Part shown: positions 3,328 to 60,614 of the stretch, piece after piece
Numbering within the stretch: the stretch's first letter is position 1
How the letters are laid out: each line of letters begins with the position of its first letter
NCBI GenBank assembly: GCA_964525455.1
Contig: CAZGHP010000001.1
Coordinates: 74,739 to 138,738, forward strand
DNA: 64,000 bases
Source: an uncultured Candidatus Saccharibacteria bacterium
GTDB taxonomy: Bacteria; Patescibacteriota; SICC01
Direction: 5' to 3'
The notes under the pieces: model-generated
Seen by the model: the letters and a program-made list of their open reading frames with translations, nothing else
Database searches by the model: none
Told to the model about the DNA's origin: nothing
Translations under genes and position numbers: made by a program

Positions 3328-3846
3328 ATGAAATACGCCGTTATTTCAGACAGCCACGACAACTTCTACAATCTCGACCAAGCCGTTAAGCGGATTCTAG
3401 AAGAAGGAATCAAGACCTGCTTTCATTTAGGTGACTACTGTGCCCCGGGTTTCGTGAAGGCGATGACTGACTATGCTGACCTCCGGTGGATTTGTGTTTG
3501 GGGAAATGTCGATGGAGCCAAAGCAAAAACCCTATTGCAGTTCGGATCTCGGGAAAACTTTGACATAGTTGACGAATCTTTTCGGGAATATGAAGCATCC
3601 GAGGGTCTGATTTTCATCACTCATTTTCCGCTTCTCGCTCAGAATGCGGCTGCGTCAGGAAAGTACAGAGCCGCGTTCTATGGCGACAACCACACCAAGC
3701 ACTCAGAAGTGGTGGGAGATACTTTGCTGGCTAATCCCGGCGAACTAGCTGGCTTCAAGAGTGGTCAGCCAAGCTTCGGGATTTATGACTCGGAAACCAA
3801 CGAGTTCCAAATCGTTGACTTGGATGACTTCCGAGTCACCAAATAG
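3328..3846 (+). CDS. metallophosphoesterase (YfcE/MJ0936-like calcineurin-family phosphodiesterase)
   Basis: N-terminal ISDSHDN and HLGDY, later GNVD and FYGDNH motifs; markedly lower GC than flanks. Confidence 0.7.
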   Translation: MKYAVISDSHDNFYNLDQAVKRILEEGIKTCFHLGDYCAPGFVKAMTDYADLRWICVWGNVDGAKAKTLLQFGSRENFDIVDESFREYEASEGLIFITHFPLLAQNAAASGKYRAAFYGDNHTKHSEVVGDTLLANPGELAGFKSGQPSFGIYDSETNEFQIVDLDDFRVTK

Positions 3847-6113: not shown

Positions 6114-6907
6114 TGTCCCGCGGCATCATGCGGAAGGCCCTCCGTGATTATCGGAAGAGCATGTTCTGGTGGTCGCTGGGAAGTTTCGCGTTGATCCTGT
6201 TCGTGGTCGCGCTGTACCCGACGTTCAAGGATACGACCAGCCTGACCCAGCTCTACCAGTCGTCCGAAGAAATCGTGGCGCTGGTCGGACAGCAGGACAT
6301 CACCACGCCGGTCGGGTTCCTGACCCAGGAAATCTTCTCGATCATGGCGCCGCTGTTCCTGATCATTTACGGGATCAGCTTGGGGGCGGGCTCGATCGCC
6401 GGGGAAGAAGGCCGCCGGACGCTGCCGCTCCTATTGGCCAATCCGGTTTCGCGCGGCCGGATCGTATACGAGAAGTATGCCGCCATGAAAGTCGCCTTGC
6501 TGGTGATCGCGGTAGTTGTCTTCGTGAGTATCGCCGTACTGGCCCCGCTGTTCGAGATGGACAACCTGGACCTGGCCAAGCTGGCGACGGCCTCCTTCAT
6601 GACATTCCTGATCGGCCTGGCGTTCGCATCGATCGCGTTCCTCGTCGGAGCGCTGTCCGGCAACCGGGCCGCCGCGACCGGCATCGCCAGTGCCCTGGGG
6701 CTCGGCATGTACCTGCTGTACGTGATGGAGCAGTTGGTCGATTCGCTCGAGCCGTACCGATGGCTGAGCCTGTTCCATTACTTCGAGCCGGGTACCGTCC
6801 TGGCGGAGTTCCCGTCCGCGGAGAACGTGCTCGTGCTGGGGGCGGTCTCCATCGTCGGATTCGGCTTGTCGCTCCTCGTGTTCCGCGGCCGCGACGTGCG
6901 GGCTTGA
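6110..6907 (+). CDS. ABC-2 family transporter permease
   Basis: Start ATG overlaps upstream stop (ATGA coupling); 6 TM helices typical of ABC-2 permeases. Confidence 0.7.
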   Translation: MMSRGIMRKALRDYRKSMFWWSLGSFALILFVVALYPTFKDTTSLTQLYQSSEEIVALVGQQDITTPVGFLTQEIFSIMAPLFLIIYGISLGAGSIAGEEGRRTLPLLLANPVSRGRIVYEKYAAMKVALLVIAVVVFVSIAVLAPLFEMDNLDLAKLATASFMTFLIGLAFASIAFLVGALSGNRAAATGIASALGLGMYLLYVMEQLVDSLEPYRWLSLFHYFEPGTVLAEFPSAENVLVLGAVSIVGFGLSLLVFRGRDVRA

Positions 6908-17454: not shown

Positions 17455-18069
17455 ATGAAGAATCGACCTGCCCTCTATATTGTCCTCGGCTTTGTGATCG
17501 GAATGACCCTGAGCGGAGTTTTCGCTACCATCGCGGTTAACAGCGAGAATAACGGAATGATGGGAATGATGGGAATGCAGCGGGGGAGTATGGCTTCCGA
17601 CCGGCACTTCATCGAACAGATGATCCCGCACCACGACGATGCGGTGAAGATGGCTCGGGTGGCACAGACCCGGGCGGAGCACCCCCAAATCAAGAATCTA
17701 GCCGACGATATCGAGATCACGCAAACGAAAGAAATCGAAGAAATGCGGGAATGGTACCGAGATTGGTACGGAAAGGATCCGGCTACCGGTGGCGTGAGCG
17801 ACCATCACGACATGTCTGGAATGCAAAACGGAATGATGGGCAACTCCAAGGATTTAGAATCTCTTGAGGACGCCAAGCCGTTCGACAAGGCGTTCATCGA
17901 GCAGATGATCCCGCACCACCAAATGGCGGTGATGATGGCCCAGATGGTGCAGCAGACTGCGCGACATGATGAAGTGCGCCAGCTTGCCGGCGACATCATC
18001 GAGGCGCAGAACCGGGAAATCGACCAGATGCGTCAGTGGTACCGAACATGGTACGGGTCAGGAGTATAA
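17455..18069 (+). CDS. DUF305 family protein (metal/copper-homeostasis associated)
   Basis: Two repeats of MIPHH(D/Q)xAVxMA motif typical of DUF305; N-terminal TM anchor; TACAAT box 7 nt upstream. Confidence 0.7.
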
Positions 18070-18121
18070 GCGTGAGCGGCCACAACAGCCACTAGGTCGA
18101 ACCGCCTCACCCCCACCACCT

Positions 18122-20191
18122 ATGCTCTACCGTTGCCCGATGCATCCCGATCAGCAGTCGGAGAAGCCGGGGCTGTGTCTAATATGTGGCATGGACCTGG
18201 AACCGGTAATTACCGGCGAGCAGGCTGGACATGCAGCGCAAGAGCGAGACTCGATGATTCGCCGCCGCAAGGTCCGGTTTTCCAGTTCGGCACTTCTGAC
18301 GCTGGTGGTGATTATATTGTCATTACCGTTTGAGTTGCCGGGCAAACACTACCTGATGCTGGTTTTGACGGCAGTTGTGGTTTTTGGGATCGGGCGAGAA
18401 TTCTTCATCGCGGGTATCCCGGCGTTCGTGAAGAGGGCTCGCCCGAATATGGACACTCTAATTGCCATTGGCACCTCAACCGCTTTACTTTTCAGCGCCT
18501 ACGTCACGTTTACCGGAGGTGAGGCTGTCTACTATGAAGTAGCGGCGGCGATTGTGACGCTAATTCTGCTCGGCCGTTATCTCGAAGCACTCTCCAAGAA
18601 GCGTGCCGGGGATGCCATTACCAAGCTCTTAGAGCTGGGCGCGAAGAAGGCGCGGGTGGTCCGTGATGGCACGGAGACAGAGGTCGATGTGGCAGAAGTC
18701 GTGAAGGGTGATATAGTCCGCGTTCGTCCAGGCGAGAAAATTCCCATCGATGGCATTATTGTCGAAGGGACGTCAGCGATCGACGAATCTTTAGTGACCG
18801 GTGAAAGTATCCCAGTCGAGAAAACTGTCGGGGATGCCGTAATCGGTGCCAGCATCAACCAGGAGGGTTCGTTACTCGTTAGGGTCGAGAAAGTCGGCAT
18901 CGAGACGGTTTTAGCCCAAATCGTGAAGATGGTAGAGGCGGCCCAGACCAGCCAAGCTCCGATTGAGCGGTTGGTTGATACCGTATCTCGCTACTTTGTC
19001 TGGGCAGTACTGGCCCTGGCGGTGCTAACGCTCGTCTTATGGCTGATGGTCGGGAACGTTCCGCTGGCGACCGCCTTCATCTATATGGTTTCGGTGTTGA
19101 TCATCGCCTGTCCCTGTGCACTCGGTTTGGCAACGCCGATGTCGGTGATGGTAGGCACCGGCAAGGGAGCGGAGCTTGGCATCATTATCAAGAAGGCCGA
19201 GGTGCTTGAGAAATCGAAACAGATTACGGCAATTGTCTTCGACAAGACCGGAACGATTACGGTCGGCAAGCCGAAGGTGACCGCAGTGAAAATCAGGCGA
19301 GGGTCGAAGCGGGACGCCCTGGCATATGCCGGAGGCCTCGAATCGCATTCTGAACATCCGTTAGCCCGAGCGATTACCGAGTATGCGAAAAGAAAGAAAG
19401 TCCGGCTGCCGGACGTCACCGGGTTCAAGGCCGTGGTGGGGCAAGGAGTTATCGGCCACATCAAACGAGCTGAATACTTCGTGGGCAGTACCAAGCTGGC
19501 TACGGCGCGGAAGGTACTGGATGATGAGGCTCGAACAGAAATCACCGCGATGGAAGCTGACGGCATGACGGTACTGGTGCTCGGGGATACCAAGGGCATC
19601 ATCGCCGCATTCGGGGTCAAGGATACTCCGCGTCCAGAATCGAAGACGGTCGTGGCGGACCTTACCCGTCGCGGCCTGCACCTCGTTATGCTCACTGGCG
19701 ACAACCGGACGGTAGCCAGGGTAATTGCCGGTGAAGTCGGCATCGAGCACGTCGAGGCGGAAGTCGCGCCCGAAGATAAAGTGCGGGTGATTACCGAACT
19801 TCAGGAAAAAGGATACTTCGTGGCGATGGTCGGTGACGGTATTAACGACGCCCCGGCGTTGACGCAGGCGGACGTCGGCATTGCGATTGGGACCGGCACC
19901 GATGTGGCTATCGAATCAGGGGACATGGTGCTCGTACGAGGAGACATCCGTAAAGCGGCGACGGCAATCAAGTTGTCACAAAAGACCTTCACCAATATAA
20001 AGCAGAATCTTTTCTGGGCATTTTTCTACAATGCCGCTCTCATACCAGTAGCTATGATCGGTAAGATCAACCCGATCCTGGCGGCTGGTGCGATGGCATT
20101 CTCATCAGTAAGCGTGGTTTTGAACGCCGCCCGTCTAAAGCGTCTCCGCATTAGCGAAGACAAGATTGGGGACCACATTGAACCTTCCTAA
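18122..20191 (+). CDS. copA: copper-translocating P1B-type ATPase
   Basis: N-terminal CPMHP...[10 protein letters not shown] metal-binding motif, transduction CPC ([11 protein letters not shown]), DKTGTIT phosphorylation site, [13 protein letters not shown] at 18122 in frame with ORF 17966..20191. Confidence 0.85.
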
Positions 20192-28533: not shown

Positions 28534-29571
28534 ATGGGATCAAGCACACACAGCGCCGAAAGAACCGGTACCCCGGAAGAGCAGAGTCGTCGCCTGGAGG
28601 CTCTCCACGCGCGTCGGGAGGAATGTTTATCCGAGCCTCTCCATTATGGGCAGCGTAGTCGCAACGCGCAGCTTCGTAAGATCGCGCTGGAAGCGTCGGA
28701 GCTTGATCGCGATTTTGCCATCGAGACGGCACTGACTATCGGTACCACTCCCTCCCGGGTAAGGGCCCTTGGCGAACTCGGGGAACGGCTTGGCGGCGAC
28801 GCGGTGATATTCCAAGTGGCTAATGAAGTTTCCAAGGAGGGCGGCATGTTTTATCAAGGCAGGGAGAAGGCCATTGGGGAGCTGGTCAGCACTATAGCCC
28901 GATTTTACCCACGTTATGCGACGGAGGTTGTGCATGATTCATGTCAAGAATGGGAGAAAGAACGTGCGCTTTGGAGAGTAGTGGAGGCGAGCGGTGACCT
29001 CGAGGCTGCTCAAGAACTGCGGCCGCTTCTCTTGGAAGGAGATGCTTGGGAGCGGCGGCACTTGAAAGATTTGGTCGAGTCGACTGCCGAAGCGCACCCT
29101 GAATTCGCCGCGGAAACGATACAGCTGATGGGAGACGGCGAAGACAAGGATCTCGCCAGGGAAGCGCTGGAACAGGCGAAGGCACGCCGGCAAGCATCGG
29201 AACCTTCCCCGACTCCCGCTCCCGACAAAACCTTTCCGCGCCTGAGTAGGTCGGAGCTCGGGCAATTGATTTGGCAGGCGAAGGAGCTGGAACAGGGCAC
29301 CTATCCTGCTTCCGCTACCGAAGCGGAATCCGTACCCGGTTCCATCATCGATACGGAATCCTTTTCGCGACTGAGCGAGAGCACCGCCCAACTGTATGTG
29401 GAAAGCCTCGTGCGGATTGGTGAGGAATTGCATGACTCCGCCGTGCTAGCAGAAGCGGCGTACCTAGCCGCACAGCTCGAAGAGGGCGAAACGAAAGACG
29501 GACTGCTGCTGCGGATTATCAAGACGGCGGATCCGGACACGCTCCGCAGCGCCATACAGCGACAGCGGTAA
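28534..29571 (+). CDS. hypothetical helical protein (345 aa)
   Basis: ORF after AT-rich divergent intergenic region. Confidence 0.45.
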   Translation: MGSSTHSAERTGTPEEQSRRLEALHARREECLSEPLHYGQRSRNAQLRKIALEASELDRDFAIETALTIGTTPSRVRALGELGERLGGDAVIFQVANEVSKEGGMFYQGREKAIGELVSTIARFYPRYATEVVHDSCQEWEKERALWRVVEASGDLEAAQELRPLLLEGDAWERRHLKDLVESTAEAHPEFAAETIQLMGDGEDKDLAREALEQAKARRQASEPSPTPAPDKTFPRLSRSELGQLIWQAKELEQGTYPASATEAESVPGSIIDTESFSRLSESTAQLYVESLVRIGEELHDSAVLAEAAYLAAQLEEGETKDGLLLRIIKTADPDTLRSAIQRQR

Positions 29572-35072: not shown

Positions 35073-36278
35073 TCATCCGGGCGTTTCCCGCTGCAGCCGC
35101 AGGTCCTGCCCGAACGCGATCGCGTCGTTCGCCACGCCCTCGCTGCCGAGCATGCCGGCCGGGATCACCGTGAACTCGCCCCAGCGGTCGTTCGCCCGGT
35201 CCACGCCCTCCGACAGGCGCGTACGCCGCCGGACGGGGTCGAACAGCGAAGGCTGCTCCGGATCGGCCGCACGCAGGGCATGGGTGGTCACGGCGAGCTT
35301 GCGGAGCGGCGCTGTCGGTGGTTCGGCCGTGAGCAGTCGCCAGGCATGGGCGAAGAGGTCGTGGTGCCGGTCGGTCGGGGTGAGACGGGCGCCAGCCGTC
35401 CAGCGGTCCCACTCCGCGGTCGGGCCGGATATCGTGAGCGCCCCGGCGCGCCAGCCGTCCCGGCGGAGCCGTCGGGCGACCCGGTGGCAGAGCTTGTGTA
35501 ACAGCGGCTTCAGCCGCGCCGGGTCCGCGGTCGCTCGCGGCAGCACGGAGGAGTGGCCGAGCGTCTTCGTCCCCCAGTCCTGGCGGTCGATCGCATAGCC
35601 GTGCACCCGGAGGTGCCAGTAGTAACCGACGATGCCGAGCCGTCGCTTGAGCTCCCAGGGCGGGAGGTCGTACAGGTCGAGCGGCGAGGCGACACCGGCC
35701 AGTTGGAACCGCGCGGCCAGCCGGTGCGCGATACCGCAGAGATCGGTCAGCTTGAGCTCGTCGAGCACCGCCCGGAGGTTCTCGTGGGTGATCTCGAAGA
35801 GGCCGTCGGGCTTCCGGAAGTCGGACGCCGTCTTCGCGAGCAGCCAGTTCGGGCCGATACCCACGGAGGACGAGAGCCACTCGCCGACCTCGCGCCGGAT
35901 CCGGCGCTTGATCTCGGCGCCGATCTCACGGGCACGCATGGCTTCCGCGGGCTCCAGCCAGAGCGCGACCTCGTCCACCGAGCGTGGTTTCAGTTCGCCG
36001 CGATAGTCGTTCATGATCTTCCGGAACCGGCGGTGCACCGTCCGGTACCGCTGCGGTCGCGGCGGCAGGATCGTGATCTCCGGGATCAGCCGCCGGGCCT
36101 CGCCGACCTTGGTGCCGGTCTTCACGCCGTACCGCTTCGCCTCGATGGAGGCGGCGACGATCGTCCCGCCCGGCGAATCCACCGGGGCGACACCCACCGG
36201 CCGGCCGCGCAGCGACGGCCAGGCCTGCTGCTCGACCGTCGCGAAGAACGAGTCCATGTCGAGATGGAGGACGGTCAT
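35073..36278 (-). CDS. dinB: DNA polymerase IV (Y-family)
   Basis: MTVLHLDMDSFFATVEQ N-terminus; ATG at 36278 (RBS GGGGGA) within longer stop-free ORF 35073..36671. Confidence 0.85.
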   Translation of the reverse strand: MTVLHLDMDSFFATVEQQAWPSLRGRPVGVAPVDSPGGTIVAASIEAKRYGVKTGTKVGEARRLIPEITILPPRPQRYRTVHRRFRKIMNDYRGELKPRSVDEVALWLEPAEAMRAREIGAEIKRRIRREVGEWLSSSVGIGPNWLLAKTASDFRKPDGLFEITHENLRAVLDELKLTDLCGIAHRLAARFQLAGVASPLDLYDLPPWELKRRLGIVGYYWHLRVHGYAIDRQDWGTKTLGHSSVLPRATADPARLKPLLHKLCHRVARRLRRDGWRAGALTISGPTAEWDRWTAGARLTPTDRHHDLFAHAWRLLTAEPPTAPLRKLAVTTHALRAADPEQPSLFDPVRRRTRLSEGVDRANDRWGEFTVIPAGMLGSEGVANDAIAFGQDLRLQRETPG

Positions 36279-36286
36279 CGTTCCCC

Positions 36287-36541
36287 CTACGCCACCCCGA
36301 AGCCGACTTCCTCCAGCGTCCAGGACAGTCGTTGCTGAGAATAGGACAGTACGCAGTCGCCGGCATCGGTGGTGACGGCGTAGTAGTGGAGCGTGTCGGT
36401 GCCTTTCGGCTCGGCGTGGTGGAGGTTCAGCTTCTGGATCCAGTAACGGCGTCCTTGCCAGCGCAGTAGCACGGGCAGCGCCCGGCCGCCTTCGAACTTG
36501 GCCAGCACGGTCACGCGTTCCTGTAGTTCGGTTCCACCCAT
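36287..36541 (-). CDS. small hypothetical protein (84 aa) co-transcribed upstream of dinB
   Basis: Ends 9 nt before dinB start; preceded by palindrome. Confidence 0.4.
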   Translation of the reverse strand: MGGTELQERVTVLAKFEGGRALPVLLRWQGRRYWIQKLNLHHAEPKGTDTLHYYAVTTDAGDCVLSYSQQRLSWTLEEVGFGVA

Positions 36542-36552
36542 GGCAGGAGTGA

Positions 36553-36574
36553 ATAGTATACGTTTGTATACTAT
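36553..36574. promoter_or_regulatory. inverted repeat ATAGTATAC-GTTT-GTATACTAT, candidate SOS/LexA-type operator
   Basis: 9-bp perfect arms with 4-nt spacer in divergent intergenic region upstream of small-ORF/dinB operon. Confidence 0.4.
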
Positions 36575-36585
36575 CGGGCAAGCAG

Positions 36586-37806
36586 GTGAGCGAAGAGGCG
36601 CCTGATCCCTCCGGTGGCGCCCCGTTTTTCCGGTACAATGGCTCCGTGCCGGAAAAGAAACGCCGTTTCAAAGGAAATCACCGCAAGATCCTGCTCGCCG
36701 TAGCGGCGGGAATCCTGGTCTACGCGCTTGGGTTCTACGCCGGCAAATACGGTATCCCGCCCCGGCAATACGCGGCGGGCGACACCGGCCGGCTCGCCGA
36801 TTACACCGAGTTCTATGAGGCCAAGCAATTGGTCGAGGACCGCTACGTCGGGAACGTCGACGCCCAGAAGTTGATAGACGCGGCGACCGACGGCCTGGTG
36901 AACGGCCTGGACGATCCGTACAGCGATTACCTTACCGCGCCGGAGGTGCGGGAGCTTGAGGATTCGCTCTCCGGGGAGCTTGAGGGTATCGGTATCGAGA
37001 TCGGCGTGCGTGACGAACAGGCCGTGGTGATCGCCCCGCTGCCGGACTCGCCGGCGGAACGCGCCGGCATCAAGGCCGGGGACCGCGTGGTCGCGGTCGG
37101 GGACCGGCCGACGGTCGGCCTGACGGTCGACGAAGTCGCCGACCGGATCCGCGGTACGGCCGGCACCGAGGTACGGGTCACGGTGCAGACGCCCGGGCAG
37201 CGGCCGCGGGAGCTCACCATCACGCGGGAGAAGTTGAAGGCCCCGTCGGTCAGCGTCCGGTTCGAGGGCGCCGTGGCCGTGCTGGAAATCTCCCGCTTCG
37301 GCGATGAGACCACGGCGGACCTCAAGCGGGCGGCGGATCGGATCCTGGCCCGCGACCCGCGGGGCATCGTACTGGACTTGCGGGGCAACCCGGGCGGTTT
37401 CCTTGATGGCGCGGTGGATGCCGCCTCCGTGTTCCTCAAGGACGGCGTGGTGGTCAAGGAACGCTTCAAGGACAAGACCGAGGAACGTTCCGTCTCGAAC
37501 GACGGCCGCTTGGCCGGTATCCCGGTGGTCGTGCTGACGAACGAGGGGACCGCCAGTGCCGCGGAAATCCTCGCCGGGGCGCTCCGCGACAACCGTGACG
37601 TCAGGCTGGTCGGCGAACAGACGTTCGGCAAGGGTTCGGTGCAGGACCTGATCGGCCTGGAAGACGGCGCGGTCCTCAAGCTCACCATCGCCGAGTGGCT
37701 GACACCGAACGGCCAGTCGCTTTCGAAACACGGCCTTAAACCGGATATCACCGTGTCCTCCAAGGACCCGGCCGCCCAGCTCCGCCGGGCGATTGAGGCG
37801 CTGTAG
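36586..37806 (+). CDS. C-terminal processing peptidase (S41, Ctp/Prc-like) with PDZ domain
   Basis: PDZ GIGIEIG..VVIAPLPDSPAERAGIKAGDRVVAV; LDLRGNPGG S41 motif; start uncertain (GTG 36586 or GTG 36643). Confidence 0.8.
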   Translation: MSEEAPDPSGGAPFFRYNGSVPEKKRRFKGNHRKILLAVAAGILVYALGFYAGKYGIPPRQYAAGDTGRLADYTEFYEAKQLVEDRYVGNVDAQKLIDAATDGLVNGLDDPYSDYLTAPEVRELEDSLSGELEGIGIEIGVRDEQAVVIAPLPDSPAERAGIKAGDRVVAVGDRPTVGLTVDEVADRIRGTAGTEVRVTVQTPGQRPRELTITREKLKAPSVSVRFEGAVAVLEISRFGDETTADLKRAADRILARDPRGIVLDLRGNPGGFLDGAVDAASVFLKDGVVVKERFKDKTEERSVSNDGRLAGIPVVVLTNEGTASAAEILAGALRDNRDVRLVGEQTFGKGSVQDLIGLEDGAVLKLTIAEWLTPNGQSLSKHGLKPDITVSSKDPAAQLRRAIEAL

Positions 37807-58284: not shown

Positions 58285-58365
58285 CCAAACCGGTATGTGT
58301 CCCGGCCGGTCTTATTAAGAATCCATGGCTGATGCACATGGATCTCTGTTGACGTTGAGCCAAGC

Positions 58366-58779
58366 ATGAACCCAACTGACATACACAAGGCAGCCGGAAT
58401 CCTGATTCGCGGCCGCAGGCTACTAGTCGAGAGGTCGAAGGGAAAAAGTTTCTTTATTGCGCCGGGTGGAAAAATCAAGGCAGGCGAAACAGCTGTTGAA
58501 GCCCTGATTCGCGAACTCAAGGAAGAATTCGGCATTATCGTCAAAGCCGCGGACCTGGAGCAGTTCGGGACGTTCCATGCTGCCGCGGCAGGACAAGAGG
58601 ACCAGCAATTGCGAATGGATGTTTTCATCGTCGGGCAATGGCAGGGCGAACCTGCTGCAAACAGTGAAGTTGAGGAAATCAGGTGGATTTCCACCGCCCA
58701 AATCGAGGAGATTCCAGTCGGGTCGATATTTGCTCACGAGGTTCTGCCGCGACTCAAGCGGCAAGGCTTAGTAGACTGA
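58366..58779 (+). CDS. NUDIX hydrolase
   Basis: Nudix box GGKIKAGETAVEALIRELKEEFGI; lower GC than flanks. Confidence 0.75.
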   Translation: MNPTDIHKAAGILIRGRRLLVERSKGKSFFIAPGGKIKAGETAVEALIRELKEEFGIIVKAADLEQFGTFHAAAAGQEDQQLRMDVFIVGQWQGEPAANSEVEEIRWISTAQIEEIPVGSIFAHEVLPRLKRQGLVD

Positions 58780-58784
58780 TAACT

Positions 58785-60614
58785 ATGAAAGCCGCCGACA
58801 TCCGGAGCACGTTCCTGAAGTTCTTCGAGGAACGCGGCCATGCGATCGTCCCGAGCGCGCCGGTTGTCCCGCAGCATGACCCGACGGTGTTGTTCACGAC
58901 CGCCGGGATGCACCCGCTGGTGCCGTACCTGCTCGGCGAGCCGCATCCGGCCGGCAAGCGCCTGGCGAACACGCAGAAGTGCATTCGGACCAGCGACATC
59001 GACGAGGTCGGCGACGAATCGCACCTCACGTTCTTCGAGATGCTCGGCAACTGGTCCCTCGGCGACTACTTCAAGGAGGACGCGATCGCCTGGAGCTGGG
59101 AACTGCTGACGAAGGAATTTAAGCTCGATCCGGCGCGGATAGCGGTGAGCGTGTTCAAAGGGGACAAGGACGCGCCGAAGGACGAGGAAGCCGCGAAGCT
59201 CTGGAAGGCGCAGGGCGTCCCGGAGGATCGAATCTTCTACTACGACAAGGAGGACAACTGGTGGGGCCCGGCCGGCAAGACCGGTCCGTGCGGTCCGGAC
59301 ACGGAGATATTCTATTGGATCGGCGAAGGCAAGCCGGAGCTGAAGCCCGGTCCGGCCGAGGATGACCAGCGCTGGTTCGAGATCTGGAACAACGTCTTCA
59401 TGCAGCATGAGAAGACCAAGGACGGGACGTTCGAGCCGCTGGCACAGAAGAACGTGGACACCGGCATGGGTCTCGAACGGCTTGCGGTGATCCTGCAGAA
59501 GAAAAGAAACGTCTACGAAACCGATTTATTTTTTCCGATAATCGAAAAAATCAAAAAACTTTCCAACGTCGAAAAAAACGACAATGAAGACCTGGAGCGC
59601 GCCGAGCGGATCATTGCGGACCACCTGAAGGCTGCGACGTTCATGATCGCGGACGGCGTCCGTCCGTCGAACACGGACCAAGGTTATATTTTACGGCGGC
59701 TGATCCGGCGCACGATTCGGCAGGCGCGCTTGTTGAAGATAGAATATCCGTTCAGTGAAGCGGTCGCGAAGACGGTCGTTTCCGAGTTCAAGGACGCGTA
59801 TCCGGAACTGGACCGGGAAGCAAAGACGATTCGTGAGGAACTTCTAAAAGAGGAAGAAAAATTCCATAAGACTCTTACGGCCGGACTGAGAAAGTTTAGA
59901 AGAACCTTTTACGATTTAGATGATCCTGACTTTGACGTTGATAAACCAGTCATAACCCCTATCAAGCTCAATGGAAAAGAGCTTTTCGGACTTTATGAAA
60001 CCTATGGCTTTCCTTTCGAGTTAAGCATTGAAGAAATGAAGCGGGTTGGTGCAAAATTTTCAGAAAAAAAAATGTGGGAAGAATTTAAAACTGCTCGACA
60101 AGAGCACGAGAAACAATCCCGCTCCGGGGCTAAGCGGAAATTCGCGGGCGGACTGGCGGACCACTCCGAAAAGGTCGTCCGGCAGCACACGGCCACGCAC
60201 CTGCTGCTCGCCGCACTCCGCGACGTGCTCGGCGAGGACGTGAAGCAGCGGGGTAGCAACATCACCGCGGAGCGGCTTCGGTTCGACTTCTCGCATTCGG
60301 AAAAGCTCACTGAGGAGCAACTGAACCAAGCCGAGGCGTTGGTGAATGAGTGGATTCGCGAGGACTTGCCGGTCATCCGCAAGGAAATGTCGCGAGAGGA
60401 AGCCGAGCGGCTCGGCGCGCAGATGGAATTCGGGCACAAGTATCCGGACGTGGTCTCGGTCTACTTCGTCGGCGACCCGGAAAGCGCGCGGTCCATGGAA
60501 TTCTGCGGCGGTCCGCACGTGGAGCACACCGGCGAGATCGGCGAGTTCAAGATCAAGAAACAAGAGTCGGTCGGCGCCGGTGTACGGCGGATCAAGGCGG
60601 TCGTGAGCCCTTAA
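58785..60614 (+). CDS. alaS: alanyl-tRNA synthetase, short form lacking C-Ala domain
   Basis: MKAADIRSTFLKFFEERGH...; editing-domain HxxxH and CGGPHV motifs; stops after editing domain (609 aa); ATG 58785 in frame of ORF 58683..60614. Confidence 0.85.
   Translation: MKAADIRSTFLKFFEERGHAIVPSAPVVPQHDPTVLFTTAGMHPLVPYLLGEPHPAGKRLANTQKCIRTSDIDEVGDESHLTFFEMLGNWSLGDYFKEDAIAWSWELLTKEFKLDPARIAVSVFKGDKDAPKDEEAAKLWKAQGVPEDRIFYYDKEDNWWGPAGKTGPCGPDTEIFYWIGEGKPELKPGPAEDDQRWFEIWNNVFMQHEKTKDGTFEPLAQKNVDTGMGLERLAVILQKKRNVYETDLFFPIIEKIKKLSNVEKNDNEDLERAERIIADHLKAATFMIADGVRPSNTDQGYILRRLIRRTIRQARLLKIEYPFSEAVAKTVVSEFKDAYPELDREAKTIREELLKEEEKFHKTLTAGLRKFRRTFYDLDDPDFDVDKPVITPIKLNGKELFGLYETYGFPFELSIEEMKRVGAKFSEKKMWEEFKTARQEHEKQSRSGAKRKFAGGLADHSEKVVRQHTATHLLLAALRDVLGEDVKQRGSNITAERLRFDFSHSEKLTEEQLNQAEALVNEWIREDLPVIRKEMSREEAERLGAQMEFGHKYPDVVSVYFVGDPESARSMEFCGGPHVEHTGEIGEFKIKKQESVGAGVRRIKAVVSP

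Follow-up and report, generated by a model that had tools for sequence, protein, structure and literature searches.

The 64-kb window analysed here (64,000 nucleotides of contig CAZGHP010000001.1, assembly GCA_964525455.1, from an uncultured Candidatus Saccharibacteria bacterium) carries at positions 58785..60614 the gene alaS for a short alanyl-tRNA synthetase (AlaRS). This gene is a recombinational mosaic, and two patches of AT-rich codons inside its GC-rich reading frame are cassettes with multiple deeply divergent alleles. On balance, and with some hesitation, we favour block-wise recombination of divergent cassettes as the explanation, with the AT-rich alleles derived from an unsampled AT-richer member, or a mobile copy, of the same clade's gene pool.

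In 100-nucleotide (nt) windows along alaS, GC content is as low as 0.35 at 59500-59599 and 0.37-0.45 over 59850-60149, compared with 0.56-0.73 in the remainder of the gene and 0.62 for the whole 64-kb window. The preliminary description of this DNA had located two low-GC segments at 59480-59600 and 59830-60120, and its coordinates were right within ~20 nt. Segmentation by GC content at third codon positions (GC3) delimited patch 1 as codons 240-268 (nt 59502-59588, GC3 0.41) and patch 2 as codons 345-444 (nt 59817-60116, GC3 0.34), with GC3 of 0.88, 0.78, and 0.84 in codons 1-239, 269-344, and 445-609, respectively. The log-likelihood gain of this segmentation was 60.5, against 13.2 +/- 2.3 (maximum 22) in 300 shuffles. 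Of the two, patch 2 has the stronger signal and is very robust, while patch 1 is weaker by composition alone, with a Bayesian information criterion of 627 for four segments and 630 for five, and is backed by the comparative data. The locus is organized as follows.

58785..60614, + strand: alaS coding sequence of the small-AlaRS type, 609 amino acids plus stop (open reading frame, Pfam, homologs of ~600 amino acids, structural model).
58785..59501, + strand: segment of the catalytic (class II) domain with host-like codons, GC3 0.88 (segmentation; aligns with residues 4-~236 of 1riq).
59502..59588, + strand: patch 1 cassette, first helix and loop of the tRNA-recognition domain, GC3 0.41 (helix 250-259 plus loop in the model).
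59589..59816, + strand: middle of the tRNA-recognition domain, codons 269-344, with the motif PSN(296)TDQGY, GC3 0.78; nearest relatives L007 and L005, not L001.
59817..60116, + strand: patch 2 cassette, C-terminal helical module of the aminoacylation region and start of the linker helix, GC3 0.34.
59910..59972, + strand: insertion loop within patch 2, residues 376-396, lying within RTFYDLDDPDFDVDKPVITPIKLN (alignment; predicted local distance difference test score, pLDDT, ~59-66).
60117..60611, + strand: linker and minimal AlaX-S-like editing domain, GC3 0.84 (PF07973; HxxxH at 60186-60200 and CxxxH at 60504-60518 intact).
58366..58779, + strand: NUDIX hydrolase gene in a variable low-GC cargo slot upstream of alaS (PF00293; GC3 0.58).

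The difference between the patches and the rest of the gene lies largely in the choice among synonymous codons. In a Mantel-Haenszel test stratified by amino acid, the odds ratio for GC-ending codons was 0.13 (p = 1e-7) in patch 1 and 0.09 (p = 2e-25) in patch 2, i.e., GC-ending codons are 8-11 times less favoured inside the patches. Their GC3 of 0.34-0.41 compares with 0.85 in host core genes and is lower than both the GC content of intergenic regions (0.52-0.58) and the GC3 of a low-GC island elsewhere in the window (0.42-0.46). The other codon positions are AT-shifted as well (GC1 0.52 and GC2 0.29, against 0.64 and 0.40), as is amino-acid usage, the patches being rich in K, E, N, F, and I. 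The third positions of patch 2 (A 0.36, T 0.30, C 0.16, G 0.18) resemble those of an ordinary low-GC genome and have no strand bias. Strand-biased deamination is ruled out by the near equality of A and T at the third positions of the patches, and amino-acid composition as the sole cause of the dips by the GC3 profiles and the stratified test. A search of both patches for promoter-like sites, terminators, and Rfam families found nothing beyond chance.

Eleven alaS orthologs with available DNA (L001, L002, L004-L007, and L168-L172), encoding proteins 64-85% identical to the window AlaRS, lie in loci of 56-66% GC with conserved synteny. Their composition is not uniform, and they differ at exactly the positions of the patches. 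Patch 1 is AT-rich only in the window, in L007 and, partly, in L006; in L001, L002, L004, and L005 its GC3 is 0.74-0.97, and the full range among orthologs is 0.31-0.97. The window and L007 have the same patch 1 allele, including two small deletions, with 0.78 nucleotide identity against 0.55-0.70 to the others. For patch 2, GC3 rises from 0.34 in the window through L001 (0.35), L002 (0.41), L007 (0.44), L006 (0.48), L170 (0.52), L172 (0.55), L169 (0.62), L005 (0.64), L171 (0.65), and L004 (0.70) to L168 (0.77), and the flanks of this patch have GC3 of 0.57-0.88 across the clade, at least 0.67 in all except L172. The patch 2 allele of the window occurs elsewhere only in L001 (amino-acid identity 0.81, nucleotide identity 0.76); other alleles of the clade are 0.40-0.55 identical to it in amino acids. 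The patch 2 proteins are related in a star-like manner, with pairwise identities of 0.38-0.62 whatever the relatedness of their flanks, the exceptions being the pairs window-L001 and L005-L168 (0.81 each). The L005 allele is seen again in the more distant P0013 and P0028.

Sliding comparisons indicate that the nearest relative of the window switches repeatedly among L001, L002, L004, L005, and L007, and the same relatives alternate even within the catalytic segment 58785..59501. Neighbour-joining trees of individual segments group the window with L007 in patch 1 (bootstrap 100%) and with L001 in patch 2 (100%), the C-terminal segment (96%), and the N-terminal segment (56%). The pairwise homoplasy index (PHI), computed with our own implementation on seven sequences, was 0.488, against 0.531 +/- 0.0045 in permuted data (0/1000 as low), and it remained significant after removal of the patches (0.496 against 0.532 +/- 0.006, 0/1000). 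Incongruent segment trees together with the PHI test demonstrate mosaicism of alaS through recombination within the clade. In its conserved parts the gene has exact matches of 40-62 nt to relatives. Further divergent blocks are found in L002, around 6330-6390 (alignment columns 111-130; GC3 0.45-0.55, amino-acid identity to the window 0.5), and in L001, where alignment columns 131-160 have a lower GC3 of 0.60-0.71; patching of this compositional kind has thus struck alaS repeatedly in the clade and extends beyond the two cassettes of the window.

The structural model gives an idea of what is exchanged. It was built with AlphaFold from an alignment containing 58 homologs and has a mean pLDDT of 84.5. 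Patch 2 covers predicted helix 346-375, loop 376-396, helices 397-407 and 411-420, and only the start of the linker helix 427-453. The 21-residue loop 376-396 is missing from L004, L005, L007, L168, and L169, L006 has a longer loop related to it, and no similarity to the window loop was found outside P0002/P0009. Outside this loop both patches align to conserved AlaRS helices, including the YETYGFP motif. According to the model, the patches may be structurally self-contained pieces of the tRNA-recognition domain, consistent with tolerated replacement of whole blocks. The idea, raised in the preliminary description, that they represent inserted linkers under relaxed constraint proved mostly wrong: upon alignment of the orthologs only the loop at 59910-59972 qualifies as a lineage-specific insertion, the rest are conserved helices, and hypervariable neighbouring genes keep their GC3.

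Comparison with other genes and other lineages shows that the dip is confined to alaS of this clade. In 20 unrelated small-AlaRS genes with GC3 of at least 0.74, mean GC3 over both patch regions is 0.79-0.87 and none falls below 0.50 there, so the dip is no inherent property of this stretch of alaS. Among ~48 frame-consistent open reading frames of the window, no GC3-rich gene other than alaS has a true internal dip. In six related loci mnmA, ytxH, ftsA, the Baseplate_J-like gene, ruvX, yceG, and DHOdh have uniformly high GC3, and among the core genes of these loci a strong internal dip occurs in alaS alone, namely in L001, L002, L006, and L007. These uniform neighbours and the open reading frames of the window rule out intragenic dips as a genome-wide habit. 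Divergence or relaxed constraint alone does not yield AT-rich codons either, as 58 windows of the Baseplate_J-like gene and 14 windows of yceG with amino-acid identity below 0.55 have a mean GC3 of 0.83, equal to that of conserved windows, and GC3 is not correlated with conservation in these genes (rho 0.12 and 0.08, respectively).

Two of the genes examined in this comparison have peculiarities of their own. The dinB-like gene of the IMS family (35073-36671, - strand) was rejected as a second gene with an internal dip, since the open reading frame has a spurious ~130-codon 5' extension of wrong-frame composition; translation probably begins at the Met of MTVLHLDMDSFF, near 36281. The Baseplate_J-like gene (PF04865; 62451-64000, + strand, running off the end of the window; 9172-11052 in L001 and equivalents elsewhere) is located immediately 3' of ftsA in every relative and is followed by ruvX and yceG, which is an unusual neighbourhood for a cell-division gene. 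Its product is highly variable (mean amino-acid identity 0.61), and its GC3 is uniformly high.

The gene itself is ordinary for its lineage. The reading frame extends over 58683..60614 (+), and translation from the ATG at 58785, whose Met is the start in all alaS orthologs, gives a protein of 609 residues ending in ...CGGPHVEHTGEIGEFKIKKQESVGAGVRRIKAVVSP. The stop codon (60612-60614) directly follows the editing domain, with the CGGPHV motif just before the protein end. Pfam identifies PF01411 in residues 5-453 (E = 1.9e-143, profile positions 1-436 of 552) and the tRNA_SAD editing domain PF07973 in residues 557-603 (E = 1.1e-16), and no C-Ala/DHHA1 domain or any other domain beyond these two. 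An AlaRS that ends after its editing domain and lacks C-Ala, as first described, is confirmed by both the reading frame and the Pfam matches. The shortness, which had been taken as noteworthy, is the norm: among ~8000 homologs scored, the best 120 are all 574-673 residues long and have the same two Pfam domains, the named ones among them belonging to groups of Patescibacteria/candidate phyla radiation (CPR), and ~575-640 residues is the usual length across thousands of CPR and DPANN homologs. The window protein is a 100% match to P0001, for which there is a single record, from NCBI, on a 170-kb contig. In a scan of species representatives the short form was found, among the matches listed, in Patescibacteria, DPANN, and other archaea (~50% identical).

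Residues 2-442 align to the catalytic fragment of Aquifex aeolicus AlaRS (1riq; phmmer, E = 1e-95), and residues 463-604 to the last part of the editing domains of archaeal AlaRS (2zze/3wqy), the alignment to the archaeal C-terminal part beginning only at residue ~595 of the archaeal protein. Foldseek matched the model to catalytic fragments of AlaRS (target TM score 0.81-0.90) and its C-terminal ~150 residues to AlaX-S (1v7o/1wnu; target TM score 0.81). There is no trace of the cradle-loop barrel: the PF01411 match ends at position 436 of 552, and in the model one helix (427-453), followed by a short linker of low confidence, leads to the editing domain, which starts at residue 462. The zinc ligands H468, H472, C574, and H578 of the HxxxH and CxxxH motifs, as well as N296 of PSN(296)TDQGY, are invariant in 58 homologs. 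Thus, the window alaS is of the small-AlaRS type, with every feature that defines this type in sequence and fold, and its missing C-Ala is lineage-typical and already described, rather than special to this genome.

The C-terminus of a canonical 956-residue AlaRS matched in tblastn only the editing part of alaS within the 64-kb window. Neither a second alaS nor the separate C-Ala or AlaX gene whose presence had been considered was found within the window, which also contains no tRNA-Ala gene. Judging from its sequence, alaS presumably encodes the sole and functional AlaRS of this GC-rich Patescibacteria lineage, and its conservation suggests that the enzyme both alanylates tRNA-Ala and edits. 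Residue E405 (59997-59999, in LYETYGFP), located inside the patch 2 cassette, is the equivalent of D400 of Escherichia coli AlaRS, a residue in contact with the G3:U70 pair. This position is E in 26 of the 28 clade members and Q in the other 2, L002 among them; other small-AlaRS have D (58), Q (19), or E (10).

Segments of alaS are swapped within the clade by homologous recombination, with crossovers located in highly conserved motifs, around GMGLERL/NVYETDLF, RAERIIADHLKA, AYPEL..EAKTIREELL, and KFAGGLADH. The two self-contained tRNA-recognition pieces behave as cassettes that can be replaced and whose alleles are very divergent. The window holds an AT-rich allele at both (patch 1 as in L007, patch 2 as in L001), and other relatives have GC-rich alleles there. 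The AT-rich alleles would have evolved for a long time in an AT-richer background, either an unsampled relative or a mobile copy, and then introgressed as blocks. The range of patch 2 GC3 among relatives, 0.34-0.77, is consistent with imports of different ages, and in composition and codon usage the patches are atypical (GC3 0.34-0.41 against 0.85), as xenologous DNA would be. Recombinational patching from a low-GC homolog, proposed in the preliminary description, accordingly stands in its first part, supported by the tree incongruence, the PHI test, and the GC-rich alleles of relatives; its second part is plausible, but no low-GC donor was found and the patch proteins are clade-like. Recombination is demonstrated, whereas a low-GC donor is something we only infer.

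Several results weigh against such an import. The best match to patch 2 outside the clade in an exhaustive phmmer search of 1.84 billion representatives was 54% identical over 74 residues, BLASTP with the whole patch gave at most 46% outside the clade, and the best matches in JGI metagenomes were at 40-42%. In IMG/VR the whole protein was matched at 53% at best and the patch at 37%, and a 217-residue query retrieved only fragments of at most 380 residues at no more than 48%. Local tblastn and blastp searches with all seven alleles against all fetched sequences revealed nothing closer, and L007 and L001, which share the alleles of patch 1 and patch 2, respectively, are GC-rich mosaics in their own right, not an AT-rich source. 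Conserved sub-segments of patch 2 reach a maximum identity of 0.86-0.88 within the clade and only 0.61-0.62 in outgroups; since the blocks are clade-like at the protein level, they do not qualify as xenologous DNA from a distant low-GC donor. All 12 in-clade loci, the window included, have 56-66% GC, and the amino-acid composition of the 28 in-clade proteins predicts genomes of 0.51-0.68 GC in every case (calibration r = 0.87, residual standard deviation 0.05), compared with 0.38-0.53 for the next outgroups. With all sampled clade members GC-rich, an AT-rich reservoir within the clade is hypothetical. In addition, 49% of synonymous third positions of patch 2 differ between the window and L001, which is near saturation, while GC3 is 0.34-0.35 in both and the differences between G/C and A/T are symmetric (15 versus 18). 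As amelioration would be expected during long residence in GC-rich genomes, this combination implies either separate recent imports from related AT-rich sources or local maintenance of the AT-richness. Finally, GC3 dips at least mildly at patch 2 in every one of the 12 clade members.

Other explanations need no AT-rich donor. Old alleles native to the clade, swapped as whole blocks without heteroduplex formation, could have escaped a GC-enriching force, e.g., GC-biased gene conversion (gBGC), and drifted to an AT-rich mutational equilibrium. We consider this origin in situ possible but rather unlikely. It agrees with the clade-like proteins, the lack of an outside donor in the databases searched, the GC-richness of all sampled members, the universal patch 2 dip, and the symmetric, saturated divergence of two equally AT-rich alleles, which is what a local equilibrium would produce. 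It is also in line with the correlation of GC3 with local conservation within alaS (Spearman 0.52; 0.30 outside the patches) and with published work that associates recombination with a higher GC3 in bacteria (Lassalle et al., 2015, PMC4450053). It is opposed by the hypervariable windows of the Baseplate_J-like gene and yceG, which retain a high GC3 in the same genomes, by a patch GC3 (0.34) lower than the GC content of intergenic DNA, and by equally divergent alleles that are GC-rich in some relatives (L168, 0.77; L004, 0.70). The universal mild dip, the restriction of the phenomenon to alaS, and the AT-richness kept by the window and L001 alleles despite saturation would fit with selection for AT-rich or rare codons, either slowing translation where the catalytic domain meets the tRNA-recognition domain and shortly ahead of the editing domain, to aid co-translational folding, or serving some other alaS-specific nucleic-acid function, and both patches are placed by the model at domain or sub-domain boundaries. 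We nevertheless regard such selection as improbable. Typical translational pause clusters are far shorter than 100 codons, AT-richness is not conserved by position (0.31-0.97 in patch 1 and 0.34-0.77 in patch 2 among orthologs), the 20 unrelated GC-rich small-AlaRS genes are flat, the shifts in GC1, GC2, and amino-acid usage are not required by pausing, and neither promoter-like sites nor Rfam families were detected in the patches. A related proposal, which we think unlikely, is that the cassettes are long-lived, block-exchanged modules of the tRNA-recognition domain whose AT-rich codons are actively maintained in GC-rich genomes. The route would be balancing or diversifying selection on a surface module, for example by a phage, toxin, or partner-cell factor hitting AlaRS or its recognition of the tRNA-Ala acceptor stem, or, alternatively, selection for slow translation ahead of the editing domain. 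If this were true, the patch would represent a compositional island with a function of its own, specific to alaS, instead of an import scar and would deserve more attention.

Technical and purely compositional causes have far less to recommend them. The window belongs to a metagenome-assembled genome (MAG), and the exact matches of 40-62 nt in conserved parts of alaS could in principle have joined co-occurring strains or organisms at shared k-mers into a chimeric contig. This is very improbable, as each AT-rich allele recurs inside GC-rich alaS flanks in an independent assembly from another source (L001 for patch 2, L007 for patch 1), the 76-78% nucleotide identity between the copies excludes that they derive from the same reads, a chimera would require four in-frame junctions with every conserved motif intact, and synteny around alaS is conserved. 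Almost negligible is the probability of a pure effect of amino-acid composition, of inserted low-complexity linkers, or of targeted hypermutation of the type caused by diversity-generating retroelements (DGRs). The abundance of K, E, N, F, and I, the 21-residue insertion loop of patch 2, and the fact that DGRs are common in CPR genomes speak for this group; against it, synonymous codon choice differs strongly after stratification by amino acid, and conserved AlaRS helices account for most of both patches in the alignment. A blastn search (word size 7) of both patches against the 64-kb window for a DGR template repeat returned only chance matches of at most 27 nt, and we know of no AlaRS among the types of DGR targets. 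Thus, block-wise recombination with introgressed AT-rich alleles remains the explanation we prefer.

Low-GC DNA is present elsewhere in this genome. The slot between ytxH and alaS (58285-58784 in the window) holds different cargo in different relatives, all of it AT-richer than the host: the NUDIX gene in the window (GC3 0.58), a gene of unassigned function for a 193-residue protein in L001 (5378-5959, 0.38), AAA_17, Ham1, and a gene for a 571-residue protein in L002 (3019-5949, 0.47-0.60), and a dCMP deaminase gene in L005 (4467-4955, 0.48). The slot is empty in L004 and L006. A low-GC island (11993-15602; GC 0.44, GC3 0.42-0.46) lies directly after tRNA-Gln(ctg) (11993-12064) and encodes a Z1-domain/ResIII-type helicase (12132-13988), a 144-residue protein, and a DNA-methyltransferase-like protein (14412-15602); this is probably a restriction or defence island of acquired origin. 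The cargo slot adjacent to alaS and this island indicate that the genome takes up low-GC DNA. The ~5 kb following the island (to ~21000) have 0.49-0.57 GC and include a heavy-metal P-type ATPase gene (17966-20191, GC3 0.64). Two other genes of the window are possibly acquired or mosaic, namely the metallophosphoesterase gene just after the tRNA-Arg/tRNA-His pair (3328-3846, +; GC3 0.54) and a gene for a 345-residue protein without a Pfam match (28534-29571, +; GC3 0.61, local minimum 0.33).

The broader meaning of these data is that a single-copy essential gene of translation, in bacteria with small genomes, has been reshuffled by homologous recombination among lineages 15-30% apart in nucleotide sequence, and that a structural sub-module of the tRNA-recognition domain would tolerate wholesale replacement. 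Blocks that are AT-rich, clade-like in protein, unameliorated at saturated synonymous divergence, and restricted to alaS are of modest general interest for the evolution of base composition, and the cassettes could serve as a small natural test case for import with amelioration versus local escape from GC-enriching forces. More generally, intragenic GC dips should not be ascribed to assembly error or to a distant donor before orthologs have been compared.

The window protein has exactly the architecture of the small-AlaRS, which consist of catalytic, ATL, and editing parts without the cradle-loop barrel and C-Ala and are described from CPR, DPANN, Thermoplasmatota, and Asgard (Alvarez-Carreno et al., bioRxiv 10.1101/2023.05.29.542759). 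These taxa are also covered by the homologs of the window protein, together with several other bacterial groups. Among the GTDB species representatives L008-L087, small-AlaRS at 49-54% identity were seen in MAGs with the labels Methanomethylophilaceae, Clostridia/Christensenellales, Oscillospiraceae, Treponema/Sphaerochaeta, Lentisphaeria/Victivallales, Kiritimatiellae, and Chloroflexia, a spread wider than the taxa named in the text of that preprint consulted here, which also makes no mention of an intragenic compositional mosaic such as that of the window gene. The mini-AlaRS of Tupanvirus (PMC10036535) and the mitochondrial AlaRS of Caenorhabditis elegans (PMC8887476) work without a functional C-Ala, so that loss of this domain is compatible with specific charging of tRNA-Ala. 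Their origins, viral and mitochondrial, are unrelated to the window alaS, and the Tupanvirus enzyme has no editing domain either, in contrast to the window protein, in which a minimal one with intact HxxxH and CxxxH motifs is retained. The C-terminal ~150 residues of the latter have the same fold and zinc motifs as AlaX-S (1v7o, 1wnu); AlaX-S is free-standing, while the window module is fused to an aminoacylation fragment.

Classic mosaic genes include penA and pbp of Neisseria and Streptococcus. Like alaS of the window, classic mosaic alleles consist of alternating blocks with different nearest relatives and breakpoints in conserved stretches, some blocks being more divergent and atypical in composition. 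They differ in that their donor species are known and the selective agent, an antibiotic, is evident, whereas alaS is the gene of a housekeeping aminoacyl-tRNA synthetase with an unsampled donor, and its divergent blocks are clade-like in protein but AT-rich in codons. Mosaic alleles formed by intragenic recombination have been described in Campylobacter (PMC3139442), and methods for detecting mosaic genes are available (PMC3241670). Under gBGC (Lassalle et al., 2015, PMC4450053), segments that do not undergo ordinary homologous conversion are predicted to be AT-richer at synonymous sites, which fits the correlation between GC3 and conservation within the window alaS; that work, however, compared whole genes, while the present case concerns blocks of 90-300 nt, and other hypervariable segments in these genomes are not AT-rich. 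Overall, membership in the small-AlaRS and mosaicism by intragenic recombination are both of already known kinds, and the puzzle is the presence, in alaS only, of unameliorated AT-rich cassettes that are clade-like in protein.

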